Source: a virus. Taken from it: a DNA stretch of 34,691 bases. Position numbers and translations under genes: made by a program. How positions within the stretch are numbered: position 1 is the stretch's first letter; every line of letters starts with the position of its first letter. Positions 2,767 to 34,691 of the stretch are shown here, piece after piece. The notes beneath the pieces were generated by a model, which saw nothing but the letters and a program-made list of their open reading frames with translations, did not search any database and was not told the DNA's origin. The stretch is taken from the IMG/VR virus record IMGVR_UViG_3300028048_000053, positions 1-34,691 of that record. One strand, given 5' to 3'.

Positions 2767-2775
2767 AAAAAAAGC

Positions 2776-7522: not shown

Positions 7523-7525
7523 AAT

Positions 7526-9311: not shown

Positions 9312-9326
9312 AAGGAGTTGTGTACT

Positions 9327-10686: not shown

Positions 10687-10796
10687 TTATGGGGTTTAGT
10701 CGCCCGGGCGCAATTATGTAAACCAAAAAAATCTGAAAAAATTTCAAAAAAGGTATTGACATTTACGCCCCCCTGTGCTATACTATAATTGTTCCA

Positions 10797-11335
10797 AGGG
10801 AGTGGCCATTGACCAAGGAACTGTGGAGGGAAGCCAACATCGGCCCTGCGAGTACCAAATAATGATTGTTGGTGACGGTTAGACGCTTAAGTTGCTATGC
10901 GAACAAACACTTTCTCAAATAGCAGAAAGGGGTTAGAGACAGCAGAGCCACCCTTTTTTAGGCAGTTTTTTCCTGTGGCGTTCAAGGAAAAAATATTCTG
11001 ACTTTTTTAGTGTTCATCTGGTCATTCTTCACCAAACACTGGATTTTTCAAGAGGAAAGAATCTAAAAATAATTGGAAGAAACTGAATACTTTTAGGCAG
11101 TTTTCAATTCAGTCGCTGTGATAGAAAGAAACTCCCCCTTGCGGGGGCGGTGAGGTTAGTAAGGTAAGAGCTAACGGCTTATTGGGTCGAGCCGCTGAAT
11201 ATCAACATCCGCCCCCCAATAAGGGATATTTAAATACCTCTCTACTTTTTGTAGTGCTCCTTTTCTTTCTCTCTTTCTTTCTGTGGCGTGGGTAGGATTT
11301 TCCTACCCTTGCGCCCGGGCGAAAAATTTTTTGCC
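10797..11335 (+). ncRNA. ~540-nt apparently non-coding transcribed region between a consensus promoter (TTGACA 10761-10766) and terminator 11288-11335
   Basis: no ORF with SD; several long-range stems (CTTATTGGG...CCCAATAAG, CCCCC-ttg-CGGGGG); ORF 11283..11471 spans the next promoter and is judged spurious. Confidence 0.3.
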
Positions 11336-11412
11336 CCAATCAAATTTTCCCCTTGACATTTATAAAAAAATATGTTATTATAATAGTACAAAAAGAAAGG
11401 AGATAATAAACA

Positions 11413-11577
11413 ATGACAAACGCTATTTTGATTATCCTCTGCGTGTATTTTGCGGCTTCGGCCCTTGTTGATGCCGCAAAAGCAGACCGCAATCCCTGCT
11501 GGTCTACCTGCCTTGATGTGGTCTTTGACCTGGCTCTGCTGGTGGGCGTGTTTCATTTGATGGAGGTATTTTGCTGA
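11413..11577 (+). CDS. small membrane protein (54 aa)
   Basis: AAAGGAGA SD + ATG 11413; stop TGA overlaps next ATG (TGATG). Confidence 0.55.
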   Translation: MTNAILIILCVYFAASALVDAAKADRNPCWSTCLDVVFDLALLVGVFHLMEVFC

Positions 11578-12056
11578 TGAATACCGCAATTTTGCTTTTT
11601 GTCATTTGCACTCTTGCAAATGTTGTCATTGCGACTATCAAAAGTGTAATGACCATCAAGGGCGGCAAGGTTGCCGCTTCCATCTGGAACGCTCTCAGCT
11701 ATGGCCTTTACTCCTACATTGTGATAATGACCGCAAACGCCGACATTTCCACGCTCGGCAAGGTTTTAATCACCGTAGGCTGTAACTTAATCGGCGTGTT
11801 TTTCGTTAAGTTAGTAGAGGAAAAGATGCGAAAAGATCGCCTGTGGAAAATTGAAATGACAATTTATTCCACCAACGCCGACAAGATGCACCAAGAACTG
11901 GAAAATGCTGGTATCCCCAATAACTATGTAATTGCAGGCCGCCATGCTATTTTTAATTGTTTCTGCGATACTCAAAGTGACAGCGCAAACGCCCTTGCTA
12001 TTGGCAAGACCTACAACGCAAAAACTTTTGCATCAGAAACAAAACTTAATCCCTAA
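11577..12056 (+). CDS. membrane protein with soluble C-terminal domain (159 aa)
   Basis: ORF track 11571..12056; ATG 11577 translationally coupled; 3 hydrophobic segments. Confidence 0.65.
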   Translation: MNTAILLFVICTLANVVIATIKSVMTIKGGKVAASIWNALSYGLYSYIVIMTANADISTLGKVLITVGCNLIGVFFVKLVEEKMRKDRLWKIEMTIYSTNADKMHQELENAGIPNNYVIAGRHAIFNCFCDTQSDSANALAIGKTYNAKTFASETKLNP

Positions 12057-12116
12057 CGGCATTCCCCGCCTCGGCGGGGATGTTGCCCGGGCGCAAAAAA
12101 ATTTTTAAAAAAAGTC

Positions 12117-12145
12117 TTGACAAACTGCGCAAAGTACACTATACT
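12117..12145 (+). promoter_or_regulatory. class I promoter TTGACA-N17-TATACT
   Basis: -35 12117-12122; -10 12140-12145. Confidence 0.65.
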
Positions 12146-12179
12146 GTCTACAGAAACCAAGAGAAAAGGAGATACCAAA

Positions 12180-12494
12180 ATGAAAAAGGGTTTTGTTTCC
12201 ACGATGCGCAAGGGATTCCACATGACCTTCCCCAACGGCCTGACCGTTTCCGTCCAGTGGGGTGCTGGCAACTACTGCGACAACCACTTCCCCAAGGATA
12301 TGGATTTCACCTTCTCCAAGGACGCCGAAAGCGATACTGCCGAGGTTGCTGTCATCGATCCGCAGGGTGAGTTCCTTGACCCTCAGCGGTTTTTTGACTA
12401 TGAAATCAGATCTGACGGCATGGTGGCTGGCTGGCTCGACCCCTCGCAGGTTGTTGAACTGTTGGCGAATGCGCGCGACTGGCCTAACATCTAA
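12180..12494 (+). CDS. hypothetical protein (104 aa)
   Basis: AAAAGGAGA SD; ATG 12180 in frame with ORF 12117..12494. Confidence 0.7.
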   Translation: MKKGFVSTMRKGFHMTFPNGLTVSVQWGAGNYCDNHFPKDMDFTFSKDAESDTAEVAVIDPQGEFLDPQRFFDYEIRSDGMVAGWLDPSQVVELLANARDWPNI

Positions 12495-12612
12495 GGCCAG
12501 TCTTTCGCCCGGGCACGCATAAACATTCACTGAAACTGAATAAAAATTCTTCTTGACATTTGTTTATAGGTGTGCTATACTATGTATAGTCCAGGAGAAA
12601 GGAGAGGTAGTA

Positions 12613-13014
12613 ATGGCAAGACAGTCCGCTAAAGAGCGTGAAGCGCAGATTGAGCGCACGATGAAAGCCCTTGAAGTCACAAGGGAAGAAGCCCTTGAAA
12701 TCCTCGCAGAAGATGACGAGATTGACAAGGGCGCAGATCTTCACCCCTTGACCCCCGAACAGGAAAAAGTTGTTAAAAAGATGCGGCAGGCTGACCGCAA
12801 GCCCACGGTCTACAACTGGCAGAAAAAGCGTGAGCGTAAGCCCAACGAACTCAAAAGAGAAATCATCGACGATTTGTTCGGTTTCTTTTGCGAGAACTGG
12901 CCAGAAGTGGCAAAGAATGGAAACATCATCAACCCCGAAAGACAGATTGACTTTGAGCTTGGAGGGGAGAGCTTTTCCATCACTCTGACCCAGCACCGCA
13001 AACCCAAGGCGTAA
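12613..13014 (+). CDS. hypothetical protein (133 aa), paralog of 9854-10216
   Basis: shared block EIDKGA.L..LTPEQ..V.KKMRQADRK......W...RERKPNE.KR.II and a C-terminal ERQIDFE motif. Confidence 0.7.
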   Translation: MARQSAKEREAQIERTMKALEVTREEALEILAEDDEIDKGADLHPLTPEQEKVVKKMRQADRKPTVYNWQKKRERKPNELKREIIDDLFGFFCENWPEVAKNGNIINPERQIDFELGGESFSITLTQHRKPKA

Positions 13015-13134
13015 GGCGTAAGGGGGGAACATTTGTTCCCCTATCTGCGCCCGGGCGGCCGCAAACTGCACAATTTTAATACTCTGTTTTTGTGCAAAAC
13101 ACCATCTTGCTTTTTTAAGATAGTGTGCTATAAT

Positions 13135-13215
13135 AATAATTGTCAAGGGGCTGTAAACCGCGGGGCATCCAAATAAGTCCTGTACTGCGTGGTAAGAAAT
13201 TTCAAAAAGTTTTTT
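13135..13215 (+). ncRNA. candidate sRNA or leader between promoter (TTGCTT 13100-13105 / TATAAT 13123-13128) and tRNA-Lys
   Basis: no ORF; AT hairpin TTTCAAAAA-g-TTTTTGAAA at the 3' end. Confidence 0.3.
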
Positions 13216-13239
13216 TTTGAAAATCCCCTTGACAAACTT

Positions 13240-13314
13240 GCGGCCATGGTGTAATTGGTAACACAGTAGACTTTTAATCTATCATTCGGGGTTCAAGTCC
13301 CCGTGGTCGCACCA
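13240..13314 (+). tRNA. tRNA-Lys (anticodon UUU), CCA encoded
   Basis: manual cloverleaf: acceptor GCGGCCA/TGGTCGC, D stem GTGT/ACAC, anticodon stem GTAGA/TCTAT with loop CTTTTAA, T stem CGGGG/CCCCG with loop TTCAAGT. Confidence 0.8.
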
Positions 13315-13495
13315 ATTCCTTTCCTTTTTATTATCTCTCTCTTTCTTACAAAGAACCCTGCTAAAGCGATTTAGTGGGGTTTCTTTGTAGAATCGCCCGG
13401 GCGACTGGCAAAATGCACAAAACAATTTCTAAAATTCTATCTCATTTTGTGCATTTTGCCTATTGTAATCTGTGCGCCCTTGTGCTATACTATAA

Positions 13496-13600
13496 TCGTT
13501 CCAAGGGGGAAGGCAAACAGCGTTAGGACACTTCTTCAAAGGGGGAAGGCAAACAGTGACAGGGCACTTCCCCCCTCGGACGCCGAAAAAAATTCCAAAA
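13496..13600 (+). ncRNA. two tandem copies of the CCAAGGGGGAAGGCAAACAG sRNA-like motif from promoter TTGCCT 13455-13460 / TATACT 13478-13483
   Basis: sequence family shared with 9092-9170. Confidence 0.3.
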
Positions 13601-13713
13601 AACTCTTGACAAGCCGCTTTGAGTGTGCTATAATAATGGTGTCAATGAGGGAAGCCCCTCTTGAACATAAAAAAAATATGGGTAGCGACCTACCGCTAAA
13701 GGAGTTGTGTACT

Positions 13714-14100
13714 ATGACTAACACCAAGATGACCTACAGCAAGGCTATTGCCGCCTGTATCGACCTGCTGACCACTGGCGAGACTTCTGAGAATCCCACC
13801 GAAATCGTGGAGAAGCTGACCGCCCTCTCCGAGAGCCTTGCGAAGAAGTCTGGGGCTGAGCGCAAGCCGACTGCGACCCAGGTTGCCAACGAGGGCTATA
13901 AGGCGGAGATTCTCGCCTATCTGCGTGATGTGGCCGAGCCTAAGACTGTGGGCGACATTCTCAAGGAAGTCCCCGCCGTGGCTGGTTTCTCCACTCCCAA
14001 GGTATCTGCCCTCATGAAGCAGTTGGTTGACGAGGGTAACGGCCCCGTCGAGCGTCTGACCGACAAGCGGCGCACCTACTTCCGCATCAAGGCGGAGTAA
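13714..14100 (+). CDS. winged-helix-like DNA-binding protein (128 aa), paralog of 9327-9695
   Basis: family-2 leader; ATG 13714 in frame with ORF 13447..14100. Confidence 0.7.
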   Translation: MTNTKMTYSKAIAACIDLLTTGETSENPTEIVEKLTALSESLAKKSGAERKPTATQVANEGYKAEILAYLRDVAEPKTVGDILKEVPAVAGFSTPKVSALMKQLVDEGNGPVERLTDKRRTYFRIKAE

Positions 14101-14240
14101 GCCCCCTGCGCCCATCCCCTCCCCTGCAATAGTGGGGGAGGGGCGCGCCCGGGCGAAAAAAATTTTTTTTAAAAACCCCTTGACAAACCTCTATAAATGT
14201 GCTATACTTTAGATGTTCCAAGAGGAAAGGAGAGAGTGTA

Positions 14241-14480
14241 ATGGAAAAGAAGTTTAACATGGTAGTGACCCTTACCAATGGTAAAGTCCTGCGCCACTAC
14301 GGACTTTCCTTGCGCATGGCGGCAACTATGAAATTGCACTATCAAGAGAAGTACCCTAACACCCTTGAAGAAATCGAAACCGTTTACGCAGGGACGAACA
14401 AAAGAGCTACGGCGCTTTGCTATTTCATTGAAGATGGAGAAAACGATCCTATCGCTTTCTATGAGCGTTACGGCTGGTAA
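14241..14480 (+). CDS. hypothetical protein (79 aa)
   Basis: class I promoter 14183-14215; AAAGGAGAG SD; in frame with ORF 14199..14480. Confidence 0.7.
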   Translation: MEKKFNMVVTLTNGKVLRHYGLSLRMAATMKLHYQEKYPNTLEEIETVYAGTNKRATALCYFIEDGENDPIAFYERYGW

Positions 14481-14494
14481 AAGGAGGAAATAAA

Positions 14495-14740
14495 ATGGCT
14501 ATTTCTATTAAGCGTGAAAAGAACGAGCGCGGCGTGACGGTCGGCTCTCTCAAAGTGGGCGACACTTTCATGTATGACAACCGTATCGGCGTTATCGTTG
14601 ACCGCAATGGTCACTGTTTTCCCATGGATTTTGCAACCTGTGCCACCTTTCACAAACATCCCTGGACATCCGAAGCACTTCTTCCGCAGGAGATTGTTCT
14701 GCCTATCGAGGTCGAAATGACTTGCAAGGTCGTGGGCTAA
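14495..14740 (+). CDS. hypothetical protein (81 aa)
   Basis: AAAGGAGGA SD then ATG 14495; ORF track. Confidence 0.75.
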   Translation: MAISIKREKNERGVTVGSLKVGDTFMYDNRIGVIVDRNGHCFPMDFATCATFHKHPWTSEALLPQEIVLPIEVEMTCKVVG

Positions 14741-14857
14741 GCCTTTCCCCGCTTCGGCGGGGAAATCGCCCGGGCAAAAAACTTTTTTCAAAAACCTATT
14801 GACATTTTCCTAAGTATGTGCTATACTATAATCACAAAAGGAAAGGAGATAATCAAA

Positions 14858-15130
14858 ATGACCTATTCCATCCAGATTTATCGCATGAATGCTGGCTCTT
14901 GGGAAACCTTTGTTCAGTTTACCCCCGTCGTCTTTGACGAAATGATCGAAGCTGGCAAGGCTATGTTCGTCAATCCTCTACTGTCTGCGGAGAATGTTGC
15001 TATCGTTGATGACACAACTGGCGAAGTTCTCTGGGATGCCTGTTCCGATGATGAGGACTGTGAGCCTGCGGACATTGATGATGATTGCGGCTTTGACCCC
15101 TACGAGGGCTGTTTCACCTACGACTGCTGA
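14858..15130 (+). CDS. hypothetical acidic, Cys-containing protein (90 aa)
   Basis: AAAGGAGA SD; ATG 14858 in frame with ORF 14816..15130. Confidence 0.7.
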   Translation: MTYSIQIYRMNAGSWETFVQFTPVVFDEMIEAGKAMFVNPLLSAENVAIVDDTTGEVLWDACSDDEDCEPADIDDDCGFDPYEGCFTYDC

Positions 15131-15244
15131 CCCCCTACAAGGGGGTCAGTTTGCCCGGGCGAAAAAATTTTTAAAAAGGTCTTGACAAACTCTCAGTAAT
15201 GTGTTATACTGTATTCAGAAATCAAAGGAAAGAGGGAATAAACC

Positions 15245-15457
15245 ATGGTGTGTCCTAAGTGCGGCCCTGGGGCAGCTGTAATGTCCGATGAGTGTATTGA
15301 TGTTGAGGAGTACGACGATGATAACATTGCCGTAACCTACGAGGGGACTTGTCTGTGGTGCAAACGCAAATACCAATGGACGGAAATCTATAAATATAGC
15401 CGTATCAAAAATATTATTGAAATTGGTACAGCTCCGCAGGAGGAAGAAGAGAACTAA
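15245..15457 (+). CDS. Zn-ribbon protein (CPKCG...CLWCK), 70 aa
   Basis: ORF track; class I promoter 15185-15215. Confidence 0.7.
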   Translation: MVCPKCGPGAAVMSDECIDVEEYDDDNIAVTYEGTCLWCKRKYQWTEIYKYSRIKNIIEIGTAPQEEEEN

Positions 15458-15589
15458 CCCCCCTCTTTTTCTTCCCCCTGCGCCCGGGCGCAAAAATTTT
15501 TTTTCAAAACCCCCTTGACAACCCTCCAAGAGTGTGTTATAATAAAGGCACATTGAGGGTGGTGGCCTAACACCAAAGGAGAATTTGTT

Positions 15590-16195
15590 ATGAACAAGAG
15601 TGACTTTTTCGAGCGTGAAATCCAGTTCATTGAGGACATTGACCTCCAAGACTTTGTTCGCTTTTTCTTCAATGAAAGATGCGGCGACTGGTTTTGGAAG
15701 TCTGGGGCTTCCAGTTCTGGGAAATATCATCCCCAGTTCACCAAGGGCGAGGGTGGACTTGTGCGCCATACTAAAGCCGTTGTGTGGGTCTGTGAGGAAC
15801 TTCTGCGCATGAGTTCCTACGCCTACATGAAAGACATTTACAAGGACTACGCAAGGGTCGCCTGCCTGCTTCACGATACACGCAAGTATGGCGGCGGGGA
15901 TGAAGAGGATAAAAGTTATTATCCACGTCATGGTGAAGCCGCCGCAAATGATGTTGGTGTGGCGTGGCGAGAGTTTTTCCACTGTCATTCCTGCCCCGAA
16001 TTGCTTTTGATGGCTATTCACTCCCACATGGGACAGTGGACGGAAAACAGAGAGGACAGACCCTTTACCAACATTGACCGCCTGGTACATCTGTCGGACT
16101 ACATCGCAAGCCGTCCTTTCTGGGACATTCCCGACATTACCACCGAATACAACGAAGCCAATGCAAAGATGATTGAAGATTCTCTGCCTTTCTAA
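15590..16195 (+). CDS. HD-domain phosphohydrolase (201 aa)
   Basis: H..H...LLHDTRKYG...H motif arrangement typical of the HD superfamily; family-2 leader; ORF track. Confidence 0.6.
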   Translation: MNKSDFFEREIQFIEDIDLQDFVRFFFNERCGDWFWKSGASSSGKYHPQFTKGEGGLVRHTKAVVWVCEELLRMSSYAYMKDIYKDYARVACLLHDTRKYGGGDEEDKSYYPRHGEAAANDVGVAWREFFHCHSCPELLLMAIHSHMGQWTENREDRPFTNIDRLVHLSDYIASRPFWDIPDITTEYNEANAKMIEDSLPF

Positions 16196-16286
16196 TCCCC
16201 CTCCCCTCTGTCCCAGTGACAGAGGGGAAATCGCCCGGGCGAAAATTTCCTCTTGACAAGAGGCCAAAAGTATGCTATACTGTATT

Positions 16287-16400
16287 TACAATTCACGGAG
16301 AAATCCGTTTTACATACCTGCGGACTGCCGAACAGGCTTTTTCCAAAATTTCTCATGGGCCTGCATAGGATAACATGACTTTCTGCGGGAATTTTTGAAA
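16287..16400 (+). ncRNA. candidate sRNA cassette (promoter TTGACA 16255-16260 / TATACT 16278-16283; no ORF)
   Basis: only very short ORFs; hairpins CGGAGAAATCCG and CCTGCGGACTGCCGAACAGG. Confidence 0.25.
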
Positions 16401-16466
16401 ATAATACTTGACAAACAAGCACAAGTATGTTATAATAAAGGCACAAAAAGGAAAGGAGATAATAAA

Positions 16467-16694
16467 ATGCTCGATCACATTGGCGGCATCCCCGATGGAC
16501 ACATTGTAGAGTTTCCGCACTCTGCGCGCACTTTCATGAAGGTCTGCACAAGAGATGGGCAGGGCGGAGTTGTTGACATCACTACAGGTGAGCTGATTAT
16601 GATAAGCGACCTGCCGCGATACGGTATTGATGTATGGTGCTCTGAGCACTACGGAGAAAGGGCTACTATTCAGTACGAAGTAGAGGACGATTGA
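16467..16694 (+). CDS. hypothetical protein (75 aa)
   Basis: AAAGGAGA SD; ATG 16467 in frame with ORF 16395..16694. Confidence 0.7.
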   Translation: MLDHIGGIPDGHIVEFPHSARTFMKVCTRDGQGGVVDITTGELIMISDLPRYGIDVWCSEHYGERATIQYEVEDD

Positions 16695-16793
16695 CCGTCC
16701 TCTTGGCCCGGGCGAAAAATTTTTTTAAAAACCTCTTGACAAGTGATTAGCTTTGTGCTATAATGAAGTCACAAAAGGAAAGGAGATACAAAA

Positions 16794-17075
16794 ATGAGAG
16801 CAACAGGTATTGTAAGACGCATTGATGACTTCGGCAGAGTTGTCATTCCGAGGGAAATTCGCAAAACTCTCAACATTCGCGAGGGCGACCCCCTCGAATT
16901 CTTCACCGACCCCGACGAGAGGGCTGTGTGCTTCAAGCCCTATCTGCCCTACTCCGAGCCGTGGCGTATGCTCGAAGATGCCGCAGAGACCATGCGTGAC
17001 AGCGAGGACTTTCACGAGTTCGCCGCCGATGTTTACGCCCTTGCGCGTAAGATTCGGAAATCTGCGCAGGGCTGA
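16794..17075 (+). CDS. AbrB/SpoVT/MazE-like regulator (93 aa), paralog of 1707-2000
   Basis: MRATGIVRRIDDFGRVVIPREIRKTLNIREGDPLEF matches the swapped-hairpin pattern. Confidence 0.7.
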   Translation: MRATGIVRRIDDFGRVVIPREIRKTLNIREGDPLEFFTDPDERAVCFKPYLPYSEPWRMLEDAAETMRDSEDFHEFAADVYALARKIRKSAQG

Positions 17076-17216
17076 TAAATACCCCCGCCTTGGCGGGGGA
17101 AATCGCCCGGGCGCAAAAGTTTTTTCAAAAAGGGCGTTGACAAAGGTATAATCTTGTGCTATAATATCAATGTAAACAAAAGGGTTGCGACCTAACGCAA
17201 GAAAGGAATTGATACT

Positions 17217-17510
17217 ATGAATTTCTGGATTGTTATTTTGACCATCTACATTTTCTTTACTATTACCCTGTTCTTTGTGTCTGCCGCTCAGGCGTTCGAA
17301 GTTCGGCGGCGTATCTACGCAAAAGTTGGTAAGAATTACTATGACTCTTTTTCCAAGCGAAGCATTGTTGAAAAAATTGTTAAACTTTTAACCAGCTTTT
17401 TCTTGTCTGCCATTCCTATTCTTAACTTTTTTGTAACTTTTCATGTGATTATTCATGCTGAGGAATTAGTAAATAGTAGTGTGCAGAAATGGCTTGCAGA
17501 ACATAAATAA
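17217..17510 (+). CDS. membrane protein (97 aa)
   Basis: family-2 leader; ORF track; two long hydrophobic segments. Confidence 0.65.
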   Translation: MNFWIVILTIYIFFTITLFFVSAAQAFEVRRRIYAKVGKNYYDSFSKRSIVEKIVKLLTSFFLSAIPILNFFVTFHVIIHAEELVNSSVQKWLAEHK

Positions 17511-17643
17511 GGGTAAGGGGGCTTAATGTCCCCTGCTGCCCGGGCGCTAAAAAAATCAAAAAAAGGTATTGACAAGCGGCGCAATCTGTGCTATACTATA
17601 CACAGTTAAGGGGTGGCGGCCAAACGCTAAAGGAGATAAAAAA

Positions 17644-17808
17644 ATGTTTTACGAACTGAGAGATGCGATTTTCAATCGTCTTGCCTGCTGGCTGATGAAG
17701 CACTGTCACTGTTGGTCGATGGTGTTCTATACCGCCTGCCGCAGATACTACCCTGCCAATGTAAAATGTATGTATGAATCATGGGCTGAGGAAATGGGGG
17801 TGAAGTGA
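17644..17808 (+). CDS. small Cys/His-rich protein (54 aa)
   Basis: family-2 leader + AAAGGAGA SD; in frame with ORF 17569..17808. Confidence 0.6.
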   Translation: MFYELRDAIFNRLACWLMKHCHCWSMVFYTACRRYYPANVKCMYESWAEEMGVK

Positions 17809-18023
17809 TGTTCAGAGTTTGGTTTGATGATTTGGAAGTAGCCATTGCGGCGTTCCGCAAGGTCGTGATGGACGAACTGTTCGTTTCTATTAGCGGCAAT
17901 CTCTACGGCGATTTCATTTTTGAGATTTCCGAGGGTATCAAGTACACCGTGAAGCACAACGATTTCAGCGTGTGGCGCAATTTCGGGGATTGGAGAAAAC
18001 CCGATTGGAGGGAAATCAAGTAA
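17808..18023 (+). CDS. hypothetical protein (71 aa), translationally coupled (TGATG)
   Basis: ORF track 17805..18023. Confidence 0.6.
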   Translation: MFRVWFDDLEVAIAAFRKVVMDELFVSISGNLYGDFIFEISEGIKYTVKHNDFSVWRNFGDWRKPDWREIK

Positions 18024-18145
18024 TGCCATCCCTCTATTATACCTATTCTCATTGCTCGTTGTCGCCGCTTCAATTTATTATCGCATTTGCTATTGGTGCG
18101 GCGATTGGTGCGGGAATTATTTTCTACTTTACGAATAAAGGGTGA
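18023..18145 (+). CDS. possible single-TM peptide (40 aa), coupled via TAATG
   Basis: ATG overlaps the upstream stop; hydrophobic FIIAFAIGAAIGAGIIFYF; ends inside a 24-bp palindrome terminator. Confidence 0.35.
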   Translation: MPSLYYTYSHCSLSPLQFIIAFAIGAAIGAGIIFYFTNKG

Positions 18146-18161
18146 ATAATTATTCACCCTT
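18138..18161. repeat. perfect 24-bp palindrome AAGGGTGAATAATTATTCACCCTT
   Basis: seen directly; shorter GAATAATTATTC copy at 10234-10245. Confidence 0.7.
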
Positions 18162-18256
18162 TATTCATTGCCCGGGCGCAAAAATTTTTTTTCAAAAACC
18201 CCTTGACAAGTTGCTGTAAATGTGCTATACTACATTCAGAAAGTGAGGGATGCAAG

Positions 18257-18433
18257 ATGCGTGATTTTAAATGGACTGACGAACTGTGGTGCGTTGTAAA
18301 AAACGATGGTAGCTTTGCGGGTGCTCCCTGTCTGAGTTGGGAGGAGGCGCGAGAACTTCAGGCGCAGTACGAAAACAGTCAAATGTATCTGTTGAAACCT
18401 GTCGGATGGATTTCTAAGGAGGATAAAAAATGA
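18257..18433 (+). CDS. hypothetical protein (58 aa)
   Basis: class I promoter 18208-18237; in frame with ORF 18203..18433. Confidence 0.6.
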   Translation: MRDFKWTDELWCVVKNDGSFAGAPCLSWEEARELQAQYENSQMYLLKPVGWISKEDKK

Positions 18434-19710: not shown

Positions 19711-20085
19711 ATGGTAACTAAGAATGATATTATTTCTCGCCTCCAGAAGGGTGAGGATATTGATGCTATCGCCGCAGAGTTCACTAATCTGCTCAATGAC
19801 GCGTCGAAAGAGTACACAGCCAAGCACAAGAAGAATGCGGCTGCCGAGGAGCTGGCCGTGGCGTTCAACGACTTCCTTGAGTCCTACTATCCCAACCTTG
19901 TGAAGAACGCACCTATCACTCCGGATGAGCTGATTGAGCTCTTTGATGCGCTCTCCGAGCTAGTGGAGACGCTTGGTGACCTTACGTCTATTCTGGCTCC
20001 GGGTAAGCCGGAGACTAAGTCCAAGAGCAAGGAAGATATGGATAAGGAGACAATTGAGGCGTTTCTGCGGTCGCTGCAGCTGTGA
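19711..20085 (+). CDS. hypothetical protein (124 aa); first gene driven by a class II (AT-rich) promoter
   Basis: TGATATAATATATATAGAAAATAAAGAAAGGAAT leader; ATG 19711 in frame with ORF 19618..20085; terminator 20106-20138. Confidence 0.7.
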   Translation: MVTKNDIISRLQKGEDIDAIAAEFTNLLNDASKEYTAKHKKNAAAEELAVAFNDFLESYYPNLVKNAPITPDELIELFDALSELVETLGDLTSILAPGKPETKSKSKEDMDKETIEAFLRSLQL

Positions 20086-20105
20086 GAAGAAAATATCTAA
20101 GTTAT

Positions 20106-20138
20106 AGAGGGACAGAGCTAATGCTCTGTCTCTTTTTG
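20106..20138 (+). terminator. intrinsic terminator AGAGGGACAGAGC-taat-GCTCTGTCTCT + T5
   Basis: perfect stem then T-tract. Confidence 0.7.
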
Positions 20139-20197
20139 TTTGGCTGCGCGAACCGGAGGTAAAAAAGGGCCTCTGGGGTCGGCTCTGCTCACGCAAC

Positions 20198-20350
20198 GAA
20201 TTTTAGTATTTTTATATAGAATTTTTAGTATTTTTATATAGAATTTTTAGCATTTTTATTAACGAATTTTAGCATTTCTATTTAAAATGTTTAGCATTTT
20301 TATATAGAGTTTTAGTATTCTTTATATAGTATTTTAATAGTTCTATACAA
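20198..20350. repeat. about 7 tandem copies of a 22-bp AT-rich unit GAATTTTTAGTATTTTTATATA (iteron-like)
   Basis: seen directly. Confidence 0.7.
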
Positions 20351-20384
20351 CGAACTTCAACCTTTCTTAAATAACTCCATATGC

Positions 20385-20450
20385 CATTTCATTTCATTTT
20401 TCTATTATCTTCTTCGACCCTTCCCCACATTTTCATTTCATTTTTCTATT
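20385..20450. repeat. 2 copies of CATTT(T)CATTTCATTTTTCTATT
   Basis: seen directly. Confidence 0.6.
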
Positions 20451-21029
20451 CCCCGAAGATTAGTATTTATACTCCACCGTTCTTCCGGCATAATTATATT
20501 TTGGCTTAAAAACCCTAATCAGCCCTAATTCCATACTCTATACATCACGCTTTGTTATCTTACTATTACTCTTTATCTTGGAAACATCAATCAGTTTTTT
20601 AAATTCAATTTTATTTTCTTTATTTATCTAATTATAAAAAATTAATTCTTTACTACATGTTTCTATACCCCTTTTATGTTCTTCCCATCTTTCCTCAAAA
20701 TCTCTCATTGTCATACCTACATATACTAATTCATCATTTTCATAAATACCATAGACTCCATAAGATATAGTCTTTTCCTATTTAATATGATATTTTTTCT
20801 CATAAATCTTTACTTCTTGCTATAAAGCATAATAAAAATTATCTATTTCTTTCTATGCTATCGGAATTAAATGTTTTAAAATTATCTAAATATAATGATT
20901 TAAATCTCCTTTACTCTTTTTCGTTTGAGTTTGCTTAAAAAAATAACTAACAATATTCTAAAAAGAATCTAAATCTATAAACTCCCAGTATTTACCACAA
21001 GACAATATATAACCTGGCAGATTACTTCT

Positions 21030-21227
21030 CTATTCTTTAGTTAAAAAACAAACATAAGAATCATGACTACAACTATCTAATTTATAATTACTATCTAATT
21101 TTGGCATCTGCTTAATTATATATTGGTATACAATATACATATTTTTTCGATTCAAACTTTTATGCTCACATTTCATACATTTTTCAAATTCTTCTTGTGA
21201 AACCAACTTTATAACCTCCTCATACAT
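21030..21227 (-). CDS. possible small Cys/His protein (65 aa)
   Basis: C-terminal part of minus ORF 21030..21548; upstream part of that ORF is the low-complexity repeat array. Confidence 0.3.
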   Translation of the reverse strand: MYEEVIKLVSQEEFEKCMKCEHKSLNRKNMYIVYQYIIKQMPKLDSNYKLDSCSHDSYVCFLTKE

Positions 21228-21239
21228 TACCGAGCATCC

Positions 21240-21510
21240 TAAAAATACAAAACTTGTTTTGTATTTTTTTGTACAAAAACTTGTTTTTTGTACAAAAAGT
21301 TGTAAAAATACAACATTTTTGTTGTATTGTAAGACTAAAGATAGCTTATACAAAAAATACAAAAATACAAAAATTCTTGTATCGTAGAGTCTAAAAACTA
21401 CAATTTTCGTACAAAAAACATAAGCATTTATACAAAAATACATAATAGATAAATACAATAAAAATACAATCGTACAATTTTCATACAAAAATTCGTACAA
21501 AAAATCTATA
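21240..21510. repeat. array of GTACAAAAA / TACAAAAATAC direct repeats interleaved with palindromes
   Basis: palindromes TACAAAAC-ttg-TTTTGTA, GTACAAAAA-cttg-TTTTTTGTAC, AATACAACA-ttttt-GTTGTATT read directly. Confidence 0.65.
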
Positions 21511-21511
21511 A

Positions 21512-21886
21512 TCAAAATATAGCATTGGGGTCCTTGCGTTGTACCCATCCTTTTTTATGCTGTATAGTATTCAACTTTACTCCAAAATAATCGGCTATCT
21601 CTTGCGCGCTCATATTATTTCTAGCCATTTTGTATACTTCGGCATCGGTAACTTTGAGACGAACTTTGCCTCCGTTGCGCTTTTCTTCATACTTAGCAAT
21701 ACTGACATCTATACGCCCCTTCAATAAATTTACATAAGAGTTTATACTGGGGTCATCCGTATATTTCTATTCTAAACGACAGCCATATCTGATTAAATCA
21801 GCAATGATTTTGTCCTAACTTTCCACTGGCAACTAATCAATAGCTTCTAACCAATCACTGTGTACAATAAAAGTATTATCAGCCAT
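21512..21886 (-). CDS. HTH protein (124 codons; possible ArpU/RinA-like sigma-region-4-type regulator) with three in-frame TAG codons
   Basis: ATG 21886-21884 preceded by AAGGGGGA SD; in-frame TAG at 21833-35, 21815-17, 21767-69 (plus coordinates); no TAA/TGA for 124 codons in AT-rich DNA; C-terminal ORF 21512..21724 alone has no start or SD. Confidence 0.55.
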
Positions 21887-21890
21887 TCTA

Positions 21891-22070
21891 TTAGTCCCCC
21901 TTGGCGCCAAAAATTAAGTCTAATTTTTTTTCTAATTCTGGCGTATCTTCAAAAACCCAACACCAATACTATGGCTAAAATGGATTCTTTATAGTTTCAA
22001 CGGGATATACTCCCATTTTCACCAACTTTAGCATTATTTTGCGAGAATAAATAATTCGATTCTTTAGCAT
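21891..22070 (-). CDS. small protein (59 codons) with two in-frame TAG codons
   Basis: ATAGGAGTG SD 9 nt before ATG 22070; TAG at plus 21975-77 and 21969-71; stop TAA 21893-21891 abuts the SD of the next gene. Confidence 0.45.
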
Positions 22071-28320: not shown

Positions 28321-28415
28321 TCCGTAGACCGCTTGAATGGAGAGAGGTTAATCCTCTCTCCATTTGTTTTTTATAAAAAAATATTGTATAATAAGAGTAT
28401 AAGGAGTGATAAAAT

Positions 28416-29192
28416 ATGAAATATAGTATTTCTGGTAGATAGCCCAAAGAATTGTTACAAAAAGCGGATGAAATTTTCATTGAGTACAGAGATAAAGATG
28501 TACTTTTTGATTATGTAGAGTTATATCCCGATAAAAAAATTGTGATGTTTATTCCAAAAGATACAGAAGTAGATTGGGATTTACTTAAAAGTTTTAATGA
28601 AAAACTCAATCTTACCTTGGAGATAGAACAAATTAAAGATGCAGAACTGGTTAATTTTCATTGGTTTTGGCACTTTCCGGTAACTACATATTTTGAATTA
28701 GATGGTATTCTTGCGCTTAATACATCGGAAGTTTTAATTGGTGGGCCATTGTTCTTTGACTTAGAGCGAGTAAAAGAGTTGTGCAAGGATATTGAAATAA
28801 GAGCCGTACCAAATGTTGCCTTTGACGCATATATTCCAAGAACAAATGGCATATGTGGCACTTATATCCGTCCAGAAGATGTGGTAACATATGAACCATA
28901 CATTAACACTCTAGTTTTTAAATATGAAGATCTAAAAGAAGAAAGAATGTTATTCCAAGTTTACAAAGAGGATCAGAAGTGGCCAGGTAATCTATATTTT
29001 TTAATTAAAAATCTCAACAAGCATGTAGATAATAGAGGGTTTGAAGAAGATTTCGCAAGCACTCGCCTCAACTGCCGCCAGACCTGCTGCCGCAATCATA
29101 TATGCCATTTTTGTGAATCTTACATTACTTTTATAAACACCATAGATAAAAATAAAAACTATCTAAAGGAACAATTAAATGACGATAAGTAA
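28416..29192 (+). CDS. hypothetical Cys-containing protein (258 codons) whose codon 9 is TAG
   Basis: class II promoter with AAGGAG-N8-ATG 28416 in the standard position; TAG 28440-28442 in frame; ORF 28452..29192 continues in the same frame with no SD of its own. Confidence 0.55.
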
Positions 29193-30120
29193 GAAAGATA
29201 TTGACTTATTAAAAGGCTTATGCTATCTGTCTGAAACCAAAATATTAAAATTATTTTCAGACTTTCTAACCCAGCATCAATACTCTCCCATTGTAACAAA
29301 AGACTATTTGATTGCCGAGGGGGATCTTCCAATTCTTCTGGTTGCTCATGTAGATACAGTTTTTCCAAAAGTACCAACAGAGATTTATTTCGATAGTGAG
29401 AAAAATGTCATGTGGAGTCCTAATGGATTGGGCGCAGATGATCGGGCCGGAGTGTTTGGTATAGCTAAGATTTTACAGCATGAAAGCAACTTGCGGCCGC
29501 ACATTCTTCTCACGACTGGAGAAGAGAGCGGAGGAGTTGGAGTATCTGAATTGATAACCACATTCACAGAGTCACCTTTTTTAGAACTGAAATATGTTAT
29601 TGAACTCGATAGACAAGGATTTGATGAGTGTGTTTTCTACGATTGTGATAATCAGAAATTTATCAATTATGTAACAAGTTTTGATTTTGTAGAAACAATA
29701 GGATTGTTTTCTGATATATCTATTCTTTGTCCAGCTTGGAATATTGCCGGAGTAAATCTTTCTATCGGATATATAGATGAACATTCATATATTGAAAGAC
29801 TCTTTGTAAATAAAATTTATGAAACTATTGAAAAAGTTATAACAATGTTACAAGATTATGACAATATAGATTGTTATAAATATTTTTCAAATTCTTCACG
29901 TTTGGTCGATATGGATTGTTGTGACGTGTGTCACAAAAAGACTATAGATTCAGTATTGACCGTCGCACAGAGTCTAGACTCCGCCAATACCATGTTCTAT
30001 GCGTTAGTATGTCCATCTTGCGCCCAGCGTTGTATACAGTATTGTAAGAAATGTAAAACAGCTTTTATTGACTCATACAAAAATGATTTATGTTATTCAT
30101 GTAGAAAGGAGACAAATTAA
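29179..30120 (+). CDS. M42/M20-type metallopeptidase-like domain fused to a C-terminal Cys-rich Zn-ribbon region (313 aa)
   Basis: LLVAHVDTV, GLGADDRAGV, LLTTGEESGGVG and LDRQG motifs resemble M42 (FrvX/TET-like) metal-binding residues; ORF track. Confidence 0.55.
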   Translation: MTISKKDIDLLKGLCYLSETKILKLFSDFLTQHQYSPIVTKDYLIAEGDLPILLVAHVDTVFPKVPTEIYFDSEKNVMWSPNGLGADDRAGVFGIAKILQHESNLRPHILLTTGEESGGVGVSELITTFTESPFLELKYVIELDRQGFDECVFYDCDNQKFINYVTSFDFVETIGLFSDISILCPAWNIAGVNLSIGYIDEHSYIERLFVNKIYETIEKVITMLQDYDNIDCYKYFSNSSRLVDMDCCDVCHKKTIDSVLTVAQSLDSANTMFYALVCPSCAQRCIQYCKKCKTAFIDSYKNDLCYSCRKETN

Positions 30121-30125: not shown

Positions 30126-30428
30126 ATGCGTGGAGCAATTGCGAAAACTCAAGTAGAAGATATTATTGCCAAAGCATTTGGGGATAAGTATATCGGAACA
30201 TATGATAAGAAATTGTATGTTTGGGCCGATGATGGCGGTGAAGAGGTACAAATCTCCATCGCGCTGACCTGTCCAAAAGTACCAGTGGGCGCAGAAGCCG
30301 TGCAAAAGCCTGCGACTATGGATTTTGAAAATAATCCAGACTTTGCGGTCCCCGCACCTGCGGCCGCAGAGATTACACCAGAAGAGACCGCAACTTTACA
30401 GGATATGCTAAAAAAGCTAGGTCTGTAA
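30126..30428 (+). CDS. hypothetical protein (100 aa)
   Basis: ORF track; ATG 5 nt after upstream stop. Confidence 0.65.
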   Translation: MRGAIAKTQVEDIIAKAFGDKYIGTYDKKLYVWADDGGEEVQISIALTCPKVPVGAEAVQKPATMDFENNPDFAVPAPAAAEITPEETATLQDMLKKLGL

Positions 30429-30556
30429 TTGCTACTGGACAAAAGAGATTAATTGAGTTTCGTTAAAAAACTAGTTTAGCGAAACTCAATTTTCCTTTTT
30501 GATTTTTTATAAAAAATAATATATAATATTTATAGAAAGTTAAGGAGGGAAAAGGT

Positions 30557-31118: not shown

Positions 31119-32012
31119 ATGCCAAGATATAAAGATGAAACTGGCAATAAGTATGGAAAATTAACCGTTCTATACCCTACCGATAAGAGAAATTCCAAAA
31201 GAGAGATTTTTTGGCATTGTAAATGTGACTGCGGAAATGAGTGTGATGTTTTGGGTAGATTACTGCGAAACGGGAATACTCGTTCTTGTGGTTGTCTAAG
31301 GATTGGCTCAAAAACATTGGATGAAATCGGTAATAGATATGGAAAATTAACCGTAATTTCGTAGGCCAAGGATAAAATTAATAATCATGTTGCGTGGAAT
31401 TGTTTGTGCGATTGCGGAAATAATATTATAGTATCTGGCACAAAATTACGCTCTTAGGAAATCACGGCTTGTCCAACTTGCCGCCAATTGCAAAAGCCAA
31501 AATTGACAGATGTGAATGAACAATATGGTGATCTTACTGTTTTGGAATCTGCAGGACGAGATAAGTATAGAAGATTATTGTGGAAATGTCGATGCTCTTG
31601 CGGAAATATTTGTATTGTTGCCGGCATAGATTTAAGGTCTGGACAAAAAACTAGCTGCGGCTGTAAAAAAACCCTATCTAAAGGGGCAGATAAAATAAGA
31701 CAAATTTTACAAGAAAATAATGTTCATTTTACCTAGGAAAAGACTTTTGATTCGTGTAGATTTCCGGATACCAACTAGCTCGCTCGTTTTGACTTTTATC
31801 TTCCCGAACAAAATGTTTTAATTGAGTATGATGGAAACCAGCACTTTTTTTATACAAATCATCATTGGGATACCAAAGAACATTTTGAATATACAAAAAG
31901 ACATGATGAATATAAAAATCAATGGTGTAAAGAAAACAATATAAAATTAATTAGAATTCCGTATTACGATATAAAGCAAATATCTTATGAAAAGATATTG
32001 GCTCTATTCTAA
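31119..32012 (+). CDS. homing-endonuclease-like protein: three YG.LTV..W.C.C.CGN...SCGC Zn-finger repeats + C-terminal Vsr/DUF559-like PD-(D/E)XK domain (FDFYLP...IEYDG.QH); four in-frame TAG codons
   Basis: single frame maintained 31119-32012 (ORFs 31119..31364 and 31488..31736 share the frame); TAG at 31362-64, 31455-57, 31734-36, 31776-78; no TAA/TGA until 32010. Confidence 0.5.
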
Positions 32013-32729: not shown

Positions 32730-32816
32730 GGGTCGGTATCCCGTAGCAGGTAGCGGTTCTGGCTGTAAATCAGGTGTCTAGCGACTCGGTTGGTTCGATC
32801 CCAACCCGGCCCACCA
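32730..32816 (+). tRNA. tRNA-Tyr (GUA), class II long variable arm, CCA encoded
   Basis: manual fold: acceptor GGGTCGG/CCGGCCC, anticodon loop CTGTAAA, variable stem GTC/GAC, T arm GTTGG-TTCGATC-CCAAC. Confidence 0.7.
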
Positions 32817-32909
32817 ATCGCCCTATTGGCAGACTAAAACAGAATCTATGCAATAGTATTGGCGCTGTGTCTACTGATATGGCGTCACTGTATGGTGAAG
32901 GAGATTATT

Positions 32910-33095
32910 ATGCATACCTTTCATTCTCAGGATAAATACAATTTCCATCACAATGGAGATTTTTCCGGTGACGTGATAATCACTAAGGATGATGACACTA
33001 ATTTTGAAATTGAAATTAGTAGTCAAGCTCTTCTTGAATATGCTCGTTATGTAATTGACTCTGTTCTTACAGAAAAAATTGAAGACATTATGTAA
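32910..33095 (+). CDS. hypothetical protein (61 aa) between tRNA-Tyr and tRNA-His
   Basis: GAAGGAGATTATTATG; in frame with ORF 32859..33095. Confidence 0.55.
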   Translation: MHTFHSQDKYNFHHNGDFSGDVIITKDDDTNFEIEISSQALLEYARYVIDSVLTEKIEDIM

Positions 33096-33096
33096 T

Positions 33097-33174
33097 GGTG
33101 GGAGTAGCTTAGTTGGCTAAAGCACCAGATTGTGGCTCTGGGGACCGCGGGTTCAAGACCCGTCTCTCACCCCA
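33097..33174 (+). tRNA. tRNA-His (GUG) with encoded G-1 pairing to C73, CCA encoded
   Basis: manual fold: acceptor GTGGGAG/CTCTCAC, anticodon stem CCAGA/TCTGG with loop TTGTGGC, T arm GCGGG-TTCAAGA-CCCGT. Confidence 0.7.
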
Positions 33175-33215
33175 TTTATGCCTCCTTAGCTCAGCTGGTC
33201 AGAGCACGCGGCTGT

Positions 33216-33682
33216 TTGCCTGACCTTACATTCTTGATGAAAAAGAAAAATGAATAGTAAGCAAAAAGGCAATATTACTGAATTAGAAACAATGTTAGCG
33301 TTTTTAAAACATGGTTTTAATGTTTTAACTCCTTATGGAGATTGTGAAAGATATGATTTTGTAGTAGACGCTAACAGAAAGTTTTATCGAATTCAGAGTA
33401 AAACAGCAAGCACAGAAGACGATGGAGCTTCGTTTAAGTTTTCTTGTAGGAGCTCAAATCGTCAAGATGGTAGAATAGTCCATCACCAATATACAAAAGA
33501 TGAAATTGACTATTTCGTAACTTCTTTTGAAGGAAAATGTTATTTAATTCCAGTTGAAGAATGTGGTTGTGATAAACGACTTCGTCTTTTTCCTACTAAA
33601 AATGGACAAACAAGAGGAATAAGCTGGGCAAAAGATTATGAAATGGAGGAAGTAATCAAGAATTGGTAAGCTGATGTGCAAG
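33216..33682 (+). mobile_element. 467-bp insertion in the tRNA-Asp anticodon loop carrying an endonuclease-like ORF; group-I-intron-like boundaries (5' exon ends in T, insertion ends in G)
   Basis: boundaries inferred from tRNA cloverleaf; only ~47 nt of the insertion lie outside the ORF, so the intron class is unresolved. Confidence 0.5.
33250..33669 (+). CDS. putative homing endonuclease of the PD-(D/E)XK / Hjc-like fold (139 aa) encoded inside the tRNA-Asp insertion
   Basis: pattern E11..LK.GF.V..P.GD..RYDFVVD....FYRIQSK resembles small restriction-endonuclease-fold nucleases; ORF track. Confidence 0.45.
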   Translation: MNSKQKGNITELETMLAFLKHGFNVLTPYGDCERYDFVVDANRKFYRIQSKTASTEDDGASFKFSCRSSNRQDGRIVHHQYTKDEIDYFVTSFEGKCYLIPVEECGCDKRLRLFPTKNGQTRGISWAKDYEMEEVIKNW

Positions 33683-33906
33683 CAACCGCGGTGTCGTAGG
33701 TTCGAATCCTACAGGAGGCGCCAGGCCCGTGGATCCGAGGGCACAGTATCGGACAAAATACGCTGGCATATCGTAGAGAGTGCGCAATCTCAAATATGCG
33801 ATACCGCTATTCGTTGGGGCGGGATATAAATGCAGCAACGACAGGTCGCTTGAACCTGATTGATCCTGTCGGCGGTACGGGAGAAGAAAAGCATCCGCTG
33901 TTTTAT

Positions 33907-33982
33907 AGGGGATTGGTGTAGTAGGGAGCATCTGCGCCTCCAAAGCGTTAGAGAGAGGGTCCGAGTCCTTCATCCCCTGCCA
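33907..33982 (+). tRNA. possible tRNA-Trp (CCA), weak (several G-U pairs, T-loop TCCGAGT)
   Basis: acceptor AGGGGAT/ATCCCCT perfect, discriminator G, CCA encoded, anticodon loop CTCCAAA; D and T arms non-canonical. Confidence 0.35.
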
Positions 33983-34256
33983 ATAGTGAGTCGTTTAAGC
34001 AAGACTGCGGCCATGGTAACGCAATGTTGGGTAGCGACCGGCACCAACCTCACTATTATATGCCTCGGTAGTTTAGCAAGTAAAACGGTGGACACATATT
34101 TTTATGTGGCTGCAAGTGGATGGAGCGTGGCCGTCTCGGGGCACCAACGGCAAGGTGGCGTAGCGTGAGCTACAAGTGCGAATGACTGAACGCACTAAAA
34201 ACTGGCAATGGGCAAGCCTTCTGTATAGTAAAACCAAGAAGTCTATTTTTTAATAT

Positions 34257-34331
34257 GCCGGGGTCATATAGTGGTTAGTATGCGGAACTGATAATTCCGT
34301 CATGGCAGTCCGACTCTGCCCCCTGGCACCA
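34257..34331 (+). tRNA. tRNA-Ile (GAU), CCA encoded
   Basis: acceptor GCCGGGG/CCCTGGC, anticodon stem CGGAA/TTCCG with loop CTGATAA, T arm GGCAG-TCCGACT-CTGCC. Confidence 0.7.
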
Positions 34332-34413
34332 TAAATCTCAGCTGAGATAGGGATAGCTCTGCGTTTGGAGTAGCATTTCAGTCGTCGGGGGCGGAGCGCT
34401 GAGATTTTTATAT

Positions 34414-34489
34414 CCCGCTGTAGCACAATCGGTCAGTGCCGGCAACTTATAATTGTCAGATGCTGGTTCAAATCCAGACAGCGGGACCA
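34414..34489 (+). tRNA. tRNA-Ile (UAU) (AUA decoder), CCA encoded
   Basis: acceptor CCCGCTG/CAGCGGG, D arm GCAC..GTGC, anticodon stem GGCAA/TTGTC with loop CTTATAA. Confidence 0.55.
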
Positions 34490-34569
34490 AAAACCTTGTT
34501 AGTTAGTGGAGAATAGCAGCGAGGTTTGCATTAAATTAATAAAGACACATACAGCAATTTATACTTGAA

Positions 34570-34640
34570 AGTATATTAGTCCAATGGTAGGACGCAAAAG
34601 TTTTAATTTTGAAGAATTGGTTCAAATCCAATATTTACTT
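34570..34640 (+). pseudogene. degenerate tRNA-like sequence (anticodon loop GTTTTAA, Lys-UUU-like) lacking CCA, with an acceptor mismatch
   Basis: D stem GTCC/GGAC, anticodon stem CAAAA/TTTTG, T arm ATTGG-TTCAAAT-CCAAT; acceptor AGTATAT/ATTTACT has 1 mismatch. Confidence 0.3.
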
Positions 34641-34691
34641 TTTGGTGTCTTGATTTTTATAAAAAAATATAATATAATAATTATAGAAAAG

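Follow-up and report, generated by a model that had tools for sequence, protein, structure and literature searches.

An in-frame TAG at codon 9 of a phage TIM-barrel gene: a probable glutamine codon and a candidate translational gate

Locus layout and translation start

The window analysed here is the whole 34,691-nt stretch of viral DNA IMGVR_UViG_3300028048_000053, positions 1–34,691. It carries on its plus strand a gene (the focal gene) whose ninth codon is TAG. A preliminary description of this DNA had proposed that the gene is expressed from a repeated type of promoter (class II), that it begins at an ATG preceded by a Shine-Dalgarno sequence (SD), and that translation reads through TAG, as opposed to TAG ending a short upstream open reading frame (uORF). 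The features at the locus are as follows.

Ends at 28320: upstream gene of 137 codons (137-residue product)
28334–28366, plus strand: intrinsic-terminator-like hairpin of 14 pairs followed by a T-run, which ends the upstream gene
28363–28404, plus strand: copy of the class II promoter, a member of repeat families D2/D6
28401–28406, plus strand: SD AAGGAG, with a 9-nt spacer to the ATG (TGATAAAAT)
28416–29192, plus strand: focal coding sequence, 258 codons from Met1 to TAA, supported by homologs and an AlphaFold model
28440–28442, plus strand: in-frame TAG, codon 9, very probably read as glutamine (Gln) to judge from homologs and relatives' DNA; candidate suppressor-dependent gate
28452–28454, plus strand: TTG (residue 13) listed as the start in the standard-code list of open reading frames (ORFs), but not the real start

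A repeat search of the window recovered two promoter families, classes I and II, all on the plus strand. Class II is a real AT-rich repeat family, as had been claimed, of the form TTGATTTTTTATAAAAAA(T)ATAATATATAATATATATAGAAA and with 9–16 plus-strand copies between 19101 and 34649, one of them at 28363–28404. The copies are followed by TAAG..AAGGAG, 6–10 nt and a start codon, or by a tRNA at 32673; the leader of the focal gene is thus arranged as in the other class II genes, in agreement with the preliminary description. The focal promoter has a −35 element TTGTTT (28364–28369), a 17-nt spacer and a −10 element TATAAT (28387–28392). Transcription would start at approximately 28399, about 7 nt past the −10 element, giving a leader of about 17 nt; if this position holds, the mRNA would begin just before the SD, and ATG 28416 would be its first start codon. 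Upstream, the terminator stem at 28334–28366 is preserved by compensatory substitutions in two relatives, L002 (82% protein identity) and L045 (62%), which supports a functional terminator.

The AAGGAG before ATG 28416 is present as described, but its spacer is 9 nt rather than 8. The segment AAGGAGTGATA is identical in the window and in L001, L002 and L045, and relatives have AGGAG-type SDs at the equivalent site. From ATG 28416–28418 the frame containing TAG 28440–28442 is open to TAA 29190–29192. By comparison, the ORF list does begin the gene at a TTG that lacks an SD: GGAG, GAGG and AGGA are all absent from the 17 nt 5′ of TTG 28452 (GGTAGATAGCCCAAAGAA). After the TAG, the next in-frame ATG is at codon 44, a distance of 35 codons and not about 40, as first estimated.

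Homologs were searched for with the full-length translation, in which TAG was entered as Gln (cut-off E ≤ 1e-3). The 284 homologs found are mostly 255–270 residues long (about 258) and cover 95–100% of the query. When the best 120 of these 284 were aligned, 102 started at the equivalent of Met1, with the N-terminus M-K-Y-C-x-S-G-R-Q-P, and R8 and Q9 were conserved in more than 90%. The N-terminal 12 residues are conserved in more than 100 homologs, which is above chance. Thus, homolog N-termini, which had been suggested as a check on read-through, lie at Met1 and not past TAG behind an SD of their own. A structure was modelled with AlphaFold from 110 homologs for P0001, a protein 93% identical to that of the window. 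In this model (predicted local distance difference test score, pLDDT, 97.2), residues 2–6 form the first β-strand of a barrel. A start at residue 13 would delete this strand, and the TTG 28452 start is therefore best regarded as an artefact of the standard code.

A few homologs are annotated in databases with a downstream start, but two such entries, P0007 and P0045, are standard-code miscalls, since the DNA immediately 5′ of each encodes the conserved N-terminus, containing an in-frame TAG and preceded by an SD. The DNA 5′ of P0007 (locus L043) encodes LRYSLSARQPKELLN-TAG-ADEI after an SD and a TTG start, and the DNA 5′ of P0045 (locus L044) encodes VNFTLSGR-TAG-SLAA after an SD and a GTG start. 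The database sequences of P0001, P0002 and P0003 are not reproduced by translation with table 11 and were evidently called with TAG as Gln. Public entries of the family are consequently mixed, some being clipped at the N-terminus after an early TAG and others being called with TAG as Gln. As judged from the nucleotide sequence and its homologs, the gene begins at ATG 28416 and encodes a predicted protein of 258 residues.

TAG as a glutamine codon

Scans of viral, metagenome and genome contigs provided 109 distinct gene sequences with DNA. The viral-contig scan was queried with the family alignment, and the metagenome and genome scans with a 16-sequence alignment; a single-sequence query against the viral contigs gave no match, whereas the alignment query succeeded. 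Among the 110 homologs that cover position 9, Gln stands opposite the codon-9 TAG in 101, and the DNA of unrecoded relatives has CAA or CAG at this codon. TAG itself occupies codon 9 in 26 of the 109 gene sequences. It is kept in L001 (93% protein identity) as well as in L002 and L045, and among these three the SD, ATG and TAG are invariant while flanking codons vary synonymously (AAA/AAG, GGT/GGC, AGA/AGG, CCC/CCA, TCT/TCG). TAG is also retained in L044, L005, L006, L008, L025, L037, L041 and others; L003 and L004 (49% identity, 170-kb contig) have CAA. A second near-invariant glutamine, Q222, is encoded by TAG in L006, L045/L046, L061 and L102. Across the 38 alignment columns that contain TAG, Gln is the most enriched residue (4x background), followed by Glu and Lys at 2x.

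The remaining stop codons appear to keep their function. The L002 copy of the focal gene terminates with TGA, so that TGA is still a stop. Within the window, the 62 plus-strand ORFs that follow an SD and span at least 45 codons are closed by TAA in 43 cases and by TGA in 19, and none depends on TAG to terminate. Two more protein-like genes contain in-frame TAGs and are free of TAA and TGA inside, namely 31119–32012 (four TAGs) and 20460–21227 on the minus strand (eight TAGs), and the likeness to other TAG-containing genes on which the preliminary description had relied is therefore real. Recoding is nevertheless sparse in the window: most class II genes, and all early ORFs behind class I promoters, are TAG-free. 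The codon that follows TAG varies among relatives (CCC, CCA, ACA, CCT, TCT, AAT, TCA), and there is thus no conserved 3′ context.

These observations are well explained if the phage that carries the window has reassigned TAG, which makes TAG a sense codon for Gln. We consider it highly probable, from the sequence comparisons, that the codon-9 TAG is a glutamine codon in a TAG-reassigned phage (genetic code 15) in which TAA and TGA terminate. TAG would then be translated, as the preliminary description preferred, although by genome-wide reassignment to Gln instead of by occasional read-through. Such recoding is already known in gut phages. The predicted peptide that would span codon 9 after GluC digestion is MKYSISGRQPKE, with Gln at position 9; trypsin would yield only QPK.

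Position of TAG codons within the family

For enrichment statistics, sequences were clustered at 70% protein identity and clusters were treated as independent. Among the 29 full-length clusters that use TAG, 25 have it within codons 1–16, and 15 have it only there. When the TAGs of each gene were shuffled among that gene's own Gln-type codons, the number of clusters with TAG in codons 1–16 was 9.3 ± 2.1 and never rose above 17 in 20,000 shuffles. TAG outnumbers CAA/CAG by 18 to 8 at codon 9, but at the equally conserved Q222 it is outnumbered 3 to 22 (Fisher p = 4.5e-5). Similarly, TAG makes up 60% of the Gln-type codons in codons 1–16 and 17% elsewhere (p = 1.4e-8). The early TAGs are found at codons 8, 9, 10, 13 and 16, and some of them fall where other members have a residue other than Gln, or in lineages in which codon 9 is CAA, CAG or CAT. 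Because they occupy differing positions, the early TAGs are likely to have had repeated origins rather than to represent one inherited codon.

To exclude start-call artefacts, a coverage-controlled test took in all code-15 ORFs of all loci and counted only codons within BLASTP alignments to homologs from other loci; a simpler test for 5′ bias in other genes was dropped as confounded by start calls. In the controlled test the focal family gave an odds ratio (OR) of 6.4 (p = 1.6e-6), compared with 1.9 (p = 0.054) for 30 other families together. Compared with its neighbours in the same genomes, the focal family also makes greater use of TAG as a Gln codon: TAG occurs in 51 of 105 members, against 1 of 42 for the upstream 137-residue protein and 19 of 160 for a 560-residue protein. 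The adjacent M20/M28-like peptidase has TAG in 0 of 98 relatives, although half of its upstream neighbours carry one.

The second gene downstream of the focal one, of about 100 codons, carries TAG at codon 4–5 in several lineages and Thr in others, and is a second family of the focal three-gene unit with an early TAG. One of these lineages is L003, in which the focal codon 9 is CAA.

L003 3074–3382, L004 from 3021, L041 from 13408: gene of about 100 codons with early TAG (MARG-TAG-IAKE, MKG-TAG-IAKE), syntenic with 30126–30428 of the window

Decoding tRNA

ARAGORN and Rfam identified seven tRNAs in the window.

32730–34641, plus strand: array of six tRNA genes (Tyr, His, Trp, Ile-GAU, Ile-UAU, Lys), truncated at the end of the window
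13240–13314: lone tRNA-Lys(UUU), inside the early block

A permissive Rfam scan of the window found no hidden suppressor tRNA and no theta-type ribozyme. Relatives have large tRNA arrays at the same position downstream of the focal gene. In all fetched loci, 3 of 387 tRNAs have the anticodon CUA, and these are located in equivalent arrays: two in L127 (20260–20334 and 20477–20552) and one in L042 (16265–16357). Both L127 tRNAs have a weak (mismatched or wobble) 1–72 pair and G73, which we take to fit either Gln or Trp identity, and the CUA tRNAs of the relatives are slightly closest in sequence to phage tRNA-Trp genes. By analogy with these relatives, the suppressor tRNA of the window's phage probably lies in the array beyond 34641. 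L127 has two copies of tRNA-CUA, yet the focal gene of L127 itself is TAG-free. In L008, ARAGORN calls a tRNA with a four-base anticodon (gtag) at 15491–15562.

The encoded protein

The AlphaFold model is an alternating β/α TIM barrel with an additional C-terminal helical element. Searches with the structure gave generic TIM-barrel matches to solved barrels, and only two proteins, both uncharacterised and from phages, are close structural relatives (template modelling scores 0.83–0.86). By sequence, the focal protein matched nothing in Pfam, PHROG, NCBIfam or the PDB. Four cysteines (C220, C224, C230 and C233) within the C-terminal helical element are invariant, and this suggests a metal or iron–sulphur site. 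Gln9 lies shortly after β-strand 1 in the model. The C-terminal ends of the strands typically form the active site of TIM barrels, and the near-invariance of Gln9 may be due to a position near this end of the predicted barrel.

Proposed mechanism and alternative explanations

The retention or re-creation of TAG within codons 8–16 in relatives raises the possibility that the early TAG acts as a gene-specific gate on translation that is favoured by selection, a proposal for which we judge the chances to be evenly balanced. According to this proposal, the class II promoter would transcribe the focal gene as the first cistron of a three-gene unit, comprising the TIM-barrel protein, the M20/M28-like peptidase and the 100-residue protein, that ends at a terminator at 30451–30491. 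Ribosomes would initiate at ATG 28416; both this step and transcription from the class II promoter are predicted from sequence and homology. At codon 9, host release factor 1 (RF1) would compete with a Gln-charged phage tRNA-CUA. While the suppressor is scarce, RF1 would release an 8-residue peptide, and once it is sufficient, the full 258-residue protein would be made. An early TAG would thereby tie the protein to the code switch, and a failed attempt would cost only a peptide of 8–15 residues. The competition and its timing are proposed by analogy with known recoded phages. In addition, the positional enrichment suggests that selection may place TAG early, where abortive translation is cheapest.

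Several observations weigh against the proposed mechanism. Most sequences with TAG at codon 9 cluster together, the clusters used for the statistics are not phylogenetically independent, and the codon-9 TAG could be partly inherited from a common ancestor. Some recoded relatives (L019, L061, L126 and the L085 group) have no early TAG and use CAA or CAG at codon 9, and recoded members can thus do without one. Nor is there any independent reason for the focal protein to need gating. The focal promoter class also drives tRNA genes, and if the suppressor is co-transcribed with the class II tRNA genes, then the delay could be short. Finally, the 34.7-kb window contains no CUA-anticodon tRNA, release factor or aminoacyl-tRNA synthetase, and for this reason decoding in the window's genome is inferred from relatives.

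An alternative with a substantial chance of being correct, although we would not call it probable, is that TAG encodes Gln while its position has no function, either because it was inherited from a recoded ancestor or because a slow codon is tolerated near the 5′ end. The grouping of most codon-9 TAGs in one similarity cluster is consistent with this, as is the weak 5′ trend in other families (OR 1.9), and codon 9 can change (CAG in L043, CAA in L003). However, the lineages share only 35–60% protein identity, at which synonymous sites should be saturated, and Q222 mixes CAA and CAG freely. TAG accounts for 18 of 26 cases at codon 9 but for 3 of 25 at Q222, and early TAGs arose at the non-Gln columns 8, 10 and 16 where codon 9 is CAA, CAG or CAT. 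Moreover, the absence of TAG from all 98 peptidase neighbours indicates that TAG is not neutrally spread.

It is improbable that TAG is read by local programmed read-through, via a sequence or RNA-structure context and without a change of code, or that it encodes an amino acid other than Gln. The window's lack of a suppressor tRNA would be in keeping with such readings, as would the slightly greater resemblance of the relatives' CUA tRNAs to phage tRNA-Trp than to any other tRNA. Nonetheless, the codon after TAG varies with no conserved 3′ context, and TAG occurs at many positions and in many genes and is never required as a terminator in the window. As to the residue, Gln is found at both conserved columns that bear TAG, and tRNA-Trp-derived amber suppressors with a CUA anticodon are largely charged with Gln in Escherichia coli.

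A true stop is very improbable. In that case TAG would end an 8-residue upstream peptide, and the protein would be made from the SD-less TTG 28452 or the codon-44 ATG, perhaps by termination–reinitiation. The standard-code ORF list does start at this TTG, which is just 3 codons past TAG, and a few database homologs are annotated with a downstream start. But residues 1–12 are conserved, the Met of ATG 28416 is shared as the start by 102 of the 120 best homologs, and in unrecoded relatives the frame continues unbroken with CAA or CAG at codon 9. Further, TTG 28452 has no preceding SD, residues 2–6 are β-strand 1 of a confident barrel model, and the homologs with downstream starts have been miscalled, as an SD and the conserved N-terminus lie further 5′ in their DNA. 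Lastly, although a lone in-frame stop in an otherwise intact ORF resembles a fresh mutation, a nonsense mutation or assembly error in a decaying gene is hardly credible, given the same TAG in independent assemblies of other samples (L001 from ENA, L002 from Logan, and L045) with synonymous drift around it, its presence in at least 18 lineage clusters, the confident structure model and the absence of further defects.

Neighbouring genes and the rest of the window

Apart from the focal gene with its codon-9 glutamine TAG, the window contains the following features.

29179–30120, plus strand: M20/M28-like metallopeptidase gene, TAG-free, with a 14-nt overlap with the focal 3′ end
30126–30428, plus strand: 100-residue gene, the last before the terminator at 30451–30491
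31119–32012, plus strand: second TAG-bearing gene, 297 codons, with TAG at codons 82, 113, 206 and 220
20460–21227, minus strand: GIY-YIG-like ORF with 8 in-frame TAGs, free of TAA and TGA; motif YGVYGIY..LVYVGMT read by eye
19647, 22372, 23703, 25873, 27821, 30498, 30834 and 32673, plus strand: class II promoter copies sharing the architecture of the focal one

The peptidase is approximately 41% identical to proteins of Enterococcus phages of about 140 kb (EF1, EF5, VRE9 and H1), which are its only GenBank phage relatives. The product of 31119–32012 has three Cys-rich repeats (..GKLTV..W.C.C.CG..) and a C-terminal IEYDG nuclease-like segment, both motifs being read by eye; its relatives in the fetched loci have TAGs in 11 of 11 cases, and within codons 1–16 in 5. 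The ORF at 20460–21227 stands alone as a clear gene on the minus strand, and no gene in the window is more heavily recoded. With TAG read as Gln, neither of these two products had a match in Pfam.

Class I promoters have the form CTTGACA, 17 nt, TGTGCTATA(C/A)T, and a pattern search found 28 copies, all of them on the plus strand, from 50 to 18231. They are near-consensus sigma-70 promoters (TTGACA, 17 nt, TGTGCTATACT). In most cases a GCCCGGGC hairpin and a T-run lie upstream of the promoter, and an SD and an ORF of about 50–150 codons come after it. The region 1–20 kb had appeared ORF-free under every genetic code because it is a block of tiny promoter-led genes. Reassignment of TGA, TAA or two stops throughout the window was considered for the fragmented ORFs of 1–22 kb and was ruled out, as the long "TAA-only" minus-strand frames are not protein-like. 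The plus strand of 1–18300 looks like an SPO1-type host-takeover or early module. Its guanine-plus-cytosine (GC) content is 44–51%, compared with 34–43% in 22–34 kb.

The early block contains paralogous segments (3400–3633 and 4950–5183; 9437–9623 and 13836–14022). Where the early block gives way to the class II region, 20180–20367 contains at least 6 head-to-tail copies of a 22-nt unit (TTTAGTATTTTTATATAGAATT-like), within an island of 29% GC at 20000–22000; these copies could be iterons, an origin or a regulatory array. Class II promoters at 32673 and 34649 front the tRNA array, and a PD-(D/E)XK endonuclease gene (33250–33669; Pfam PF11645, E = 5e-31) is inserted between tRNAs.

Among GenBank phages, neither the locus (megablast) nor the protein (tblastn against 50,697 records, E ≤ 1e-5) had a match. 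Relatives are located on viral contigs of 130–200 kb from gut and rumen-type metagenomes. The strong use of SDs, the sigma-70-consensus early promoters, the tiny early genes and the peptidase similar to those of Enterococcus phages point to a large phage of Firmicutes. Hosts taken from metagenome-assembled genome bins (Muribaculaceae, Acutalibacteraceae, Faecalimonas, Mollicutes and Staphylococcaceae) contradict one another and were rejected as assignments, the bins probably containing mis-binned phage contigs.

Relation to known systems and implications

Gut phages have been shown to use TAG for Gln with a bias to particular gene families, homing endonucleases included, and recoding has been proposed to delay such families as a form of post-transcriptional timing (Borges et al., 10.1101/2021.08.26.457843). 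Code 15 has also been confirmed in gut phages by metaproteomics (PMC9523058). The window shares with these phages in-frame TAG at Gln sites, the absence of TAG as a terminator, the retention of TAA and TGA, tRNA-CUA in relatives, and TAG in particular gene families, such as the GIY-YIG-like ORF with its 8 TAGs. In contrast, its lineage was matched to none of the named clades, its recoding is sparse, and the biased family is neither a lysis nor a structural gene but encodes an uncharacterised TIM-barrel protein. Its bias is also positional (codons 8–16), whereas the text of the preprint (10.1101/2021.08.26.457843) contains neither "N-termin" nor "early in". As far as our searches show, positional and gene-specific retention of an early TAG has not been described in the literature searched.

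Three other kinds of system invite comparison. The focal protein differs from TIM-barrel enzymes (aldolase, phosphate-binding and GDPD-like) in that no family is matched by sequence and in that it adds the helical element with four cysteines. In phage amber mutants on supE-type hosts, and in engineered amber gates, an early UAG makes a protein conditional on a charged CUA tRNA that beats RF1. The focal case differs from these in being natural and conserved across diverged lineages, and in that the phage presumably provides its own suppressor. Read with the standard code, the locus resembles control by a uORF or leader peptide, with an 8-codon uORF followed by a long ORF, but here the apparent uORF is the conserved in-frame N-terminus of the protein itself, and the downstream part has no start signal of its own.

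Standard-code gene callers clip or split the focal gene, as is evident from the two shortened database homologs and from the false TTG start in the ORF list of the window. If the early TAG is a gate, then the hypothesis that recoding times late genes would become testable on one small cassette, consisting of a promoter, an SD and nine codons, and other gated genes could be recognised by a sequence signature, namely a conserved gene with one TAG among its first ~16 codons. A gate would also amount to a positional rule for stop codons used as timers, beyond the known bias between gene classes. The early-TAG pattern points to a widespread, uncharacterised phage protein with a TIM barrel and four cysteines, the expression of which apparently needs tight control.

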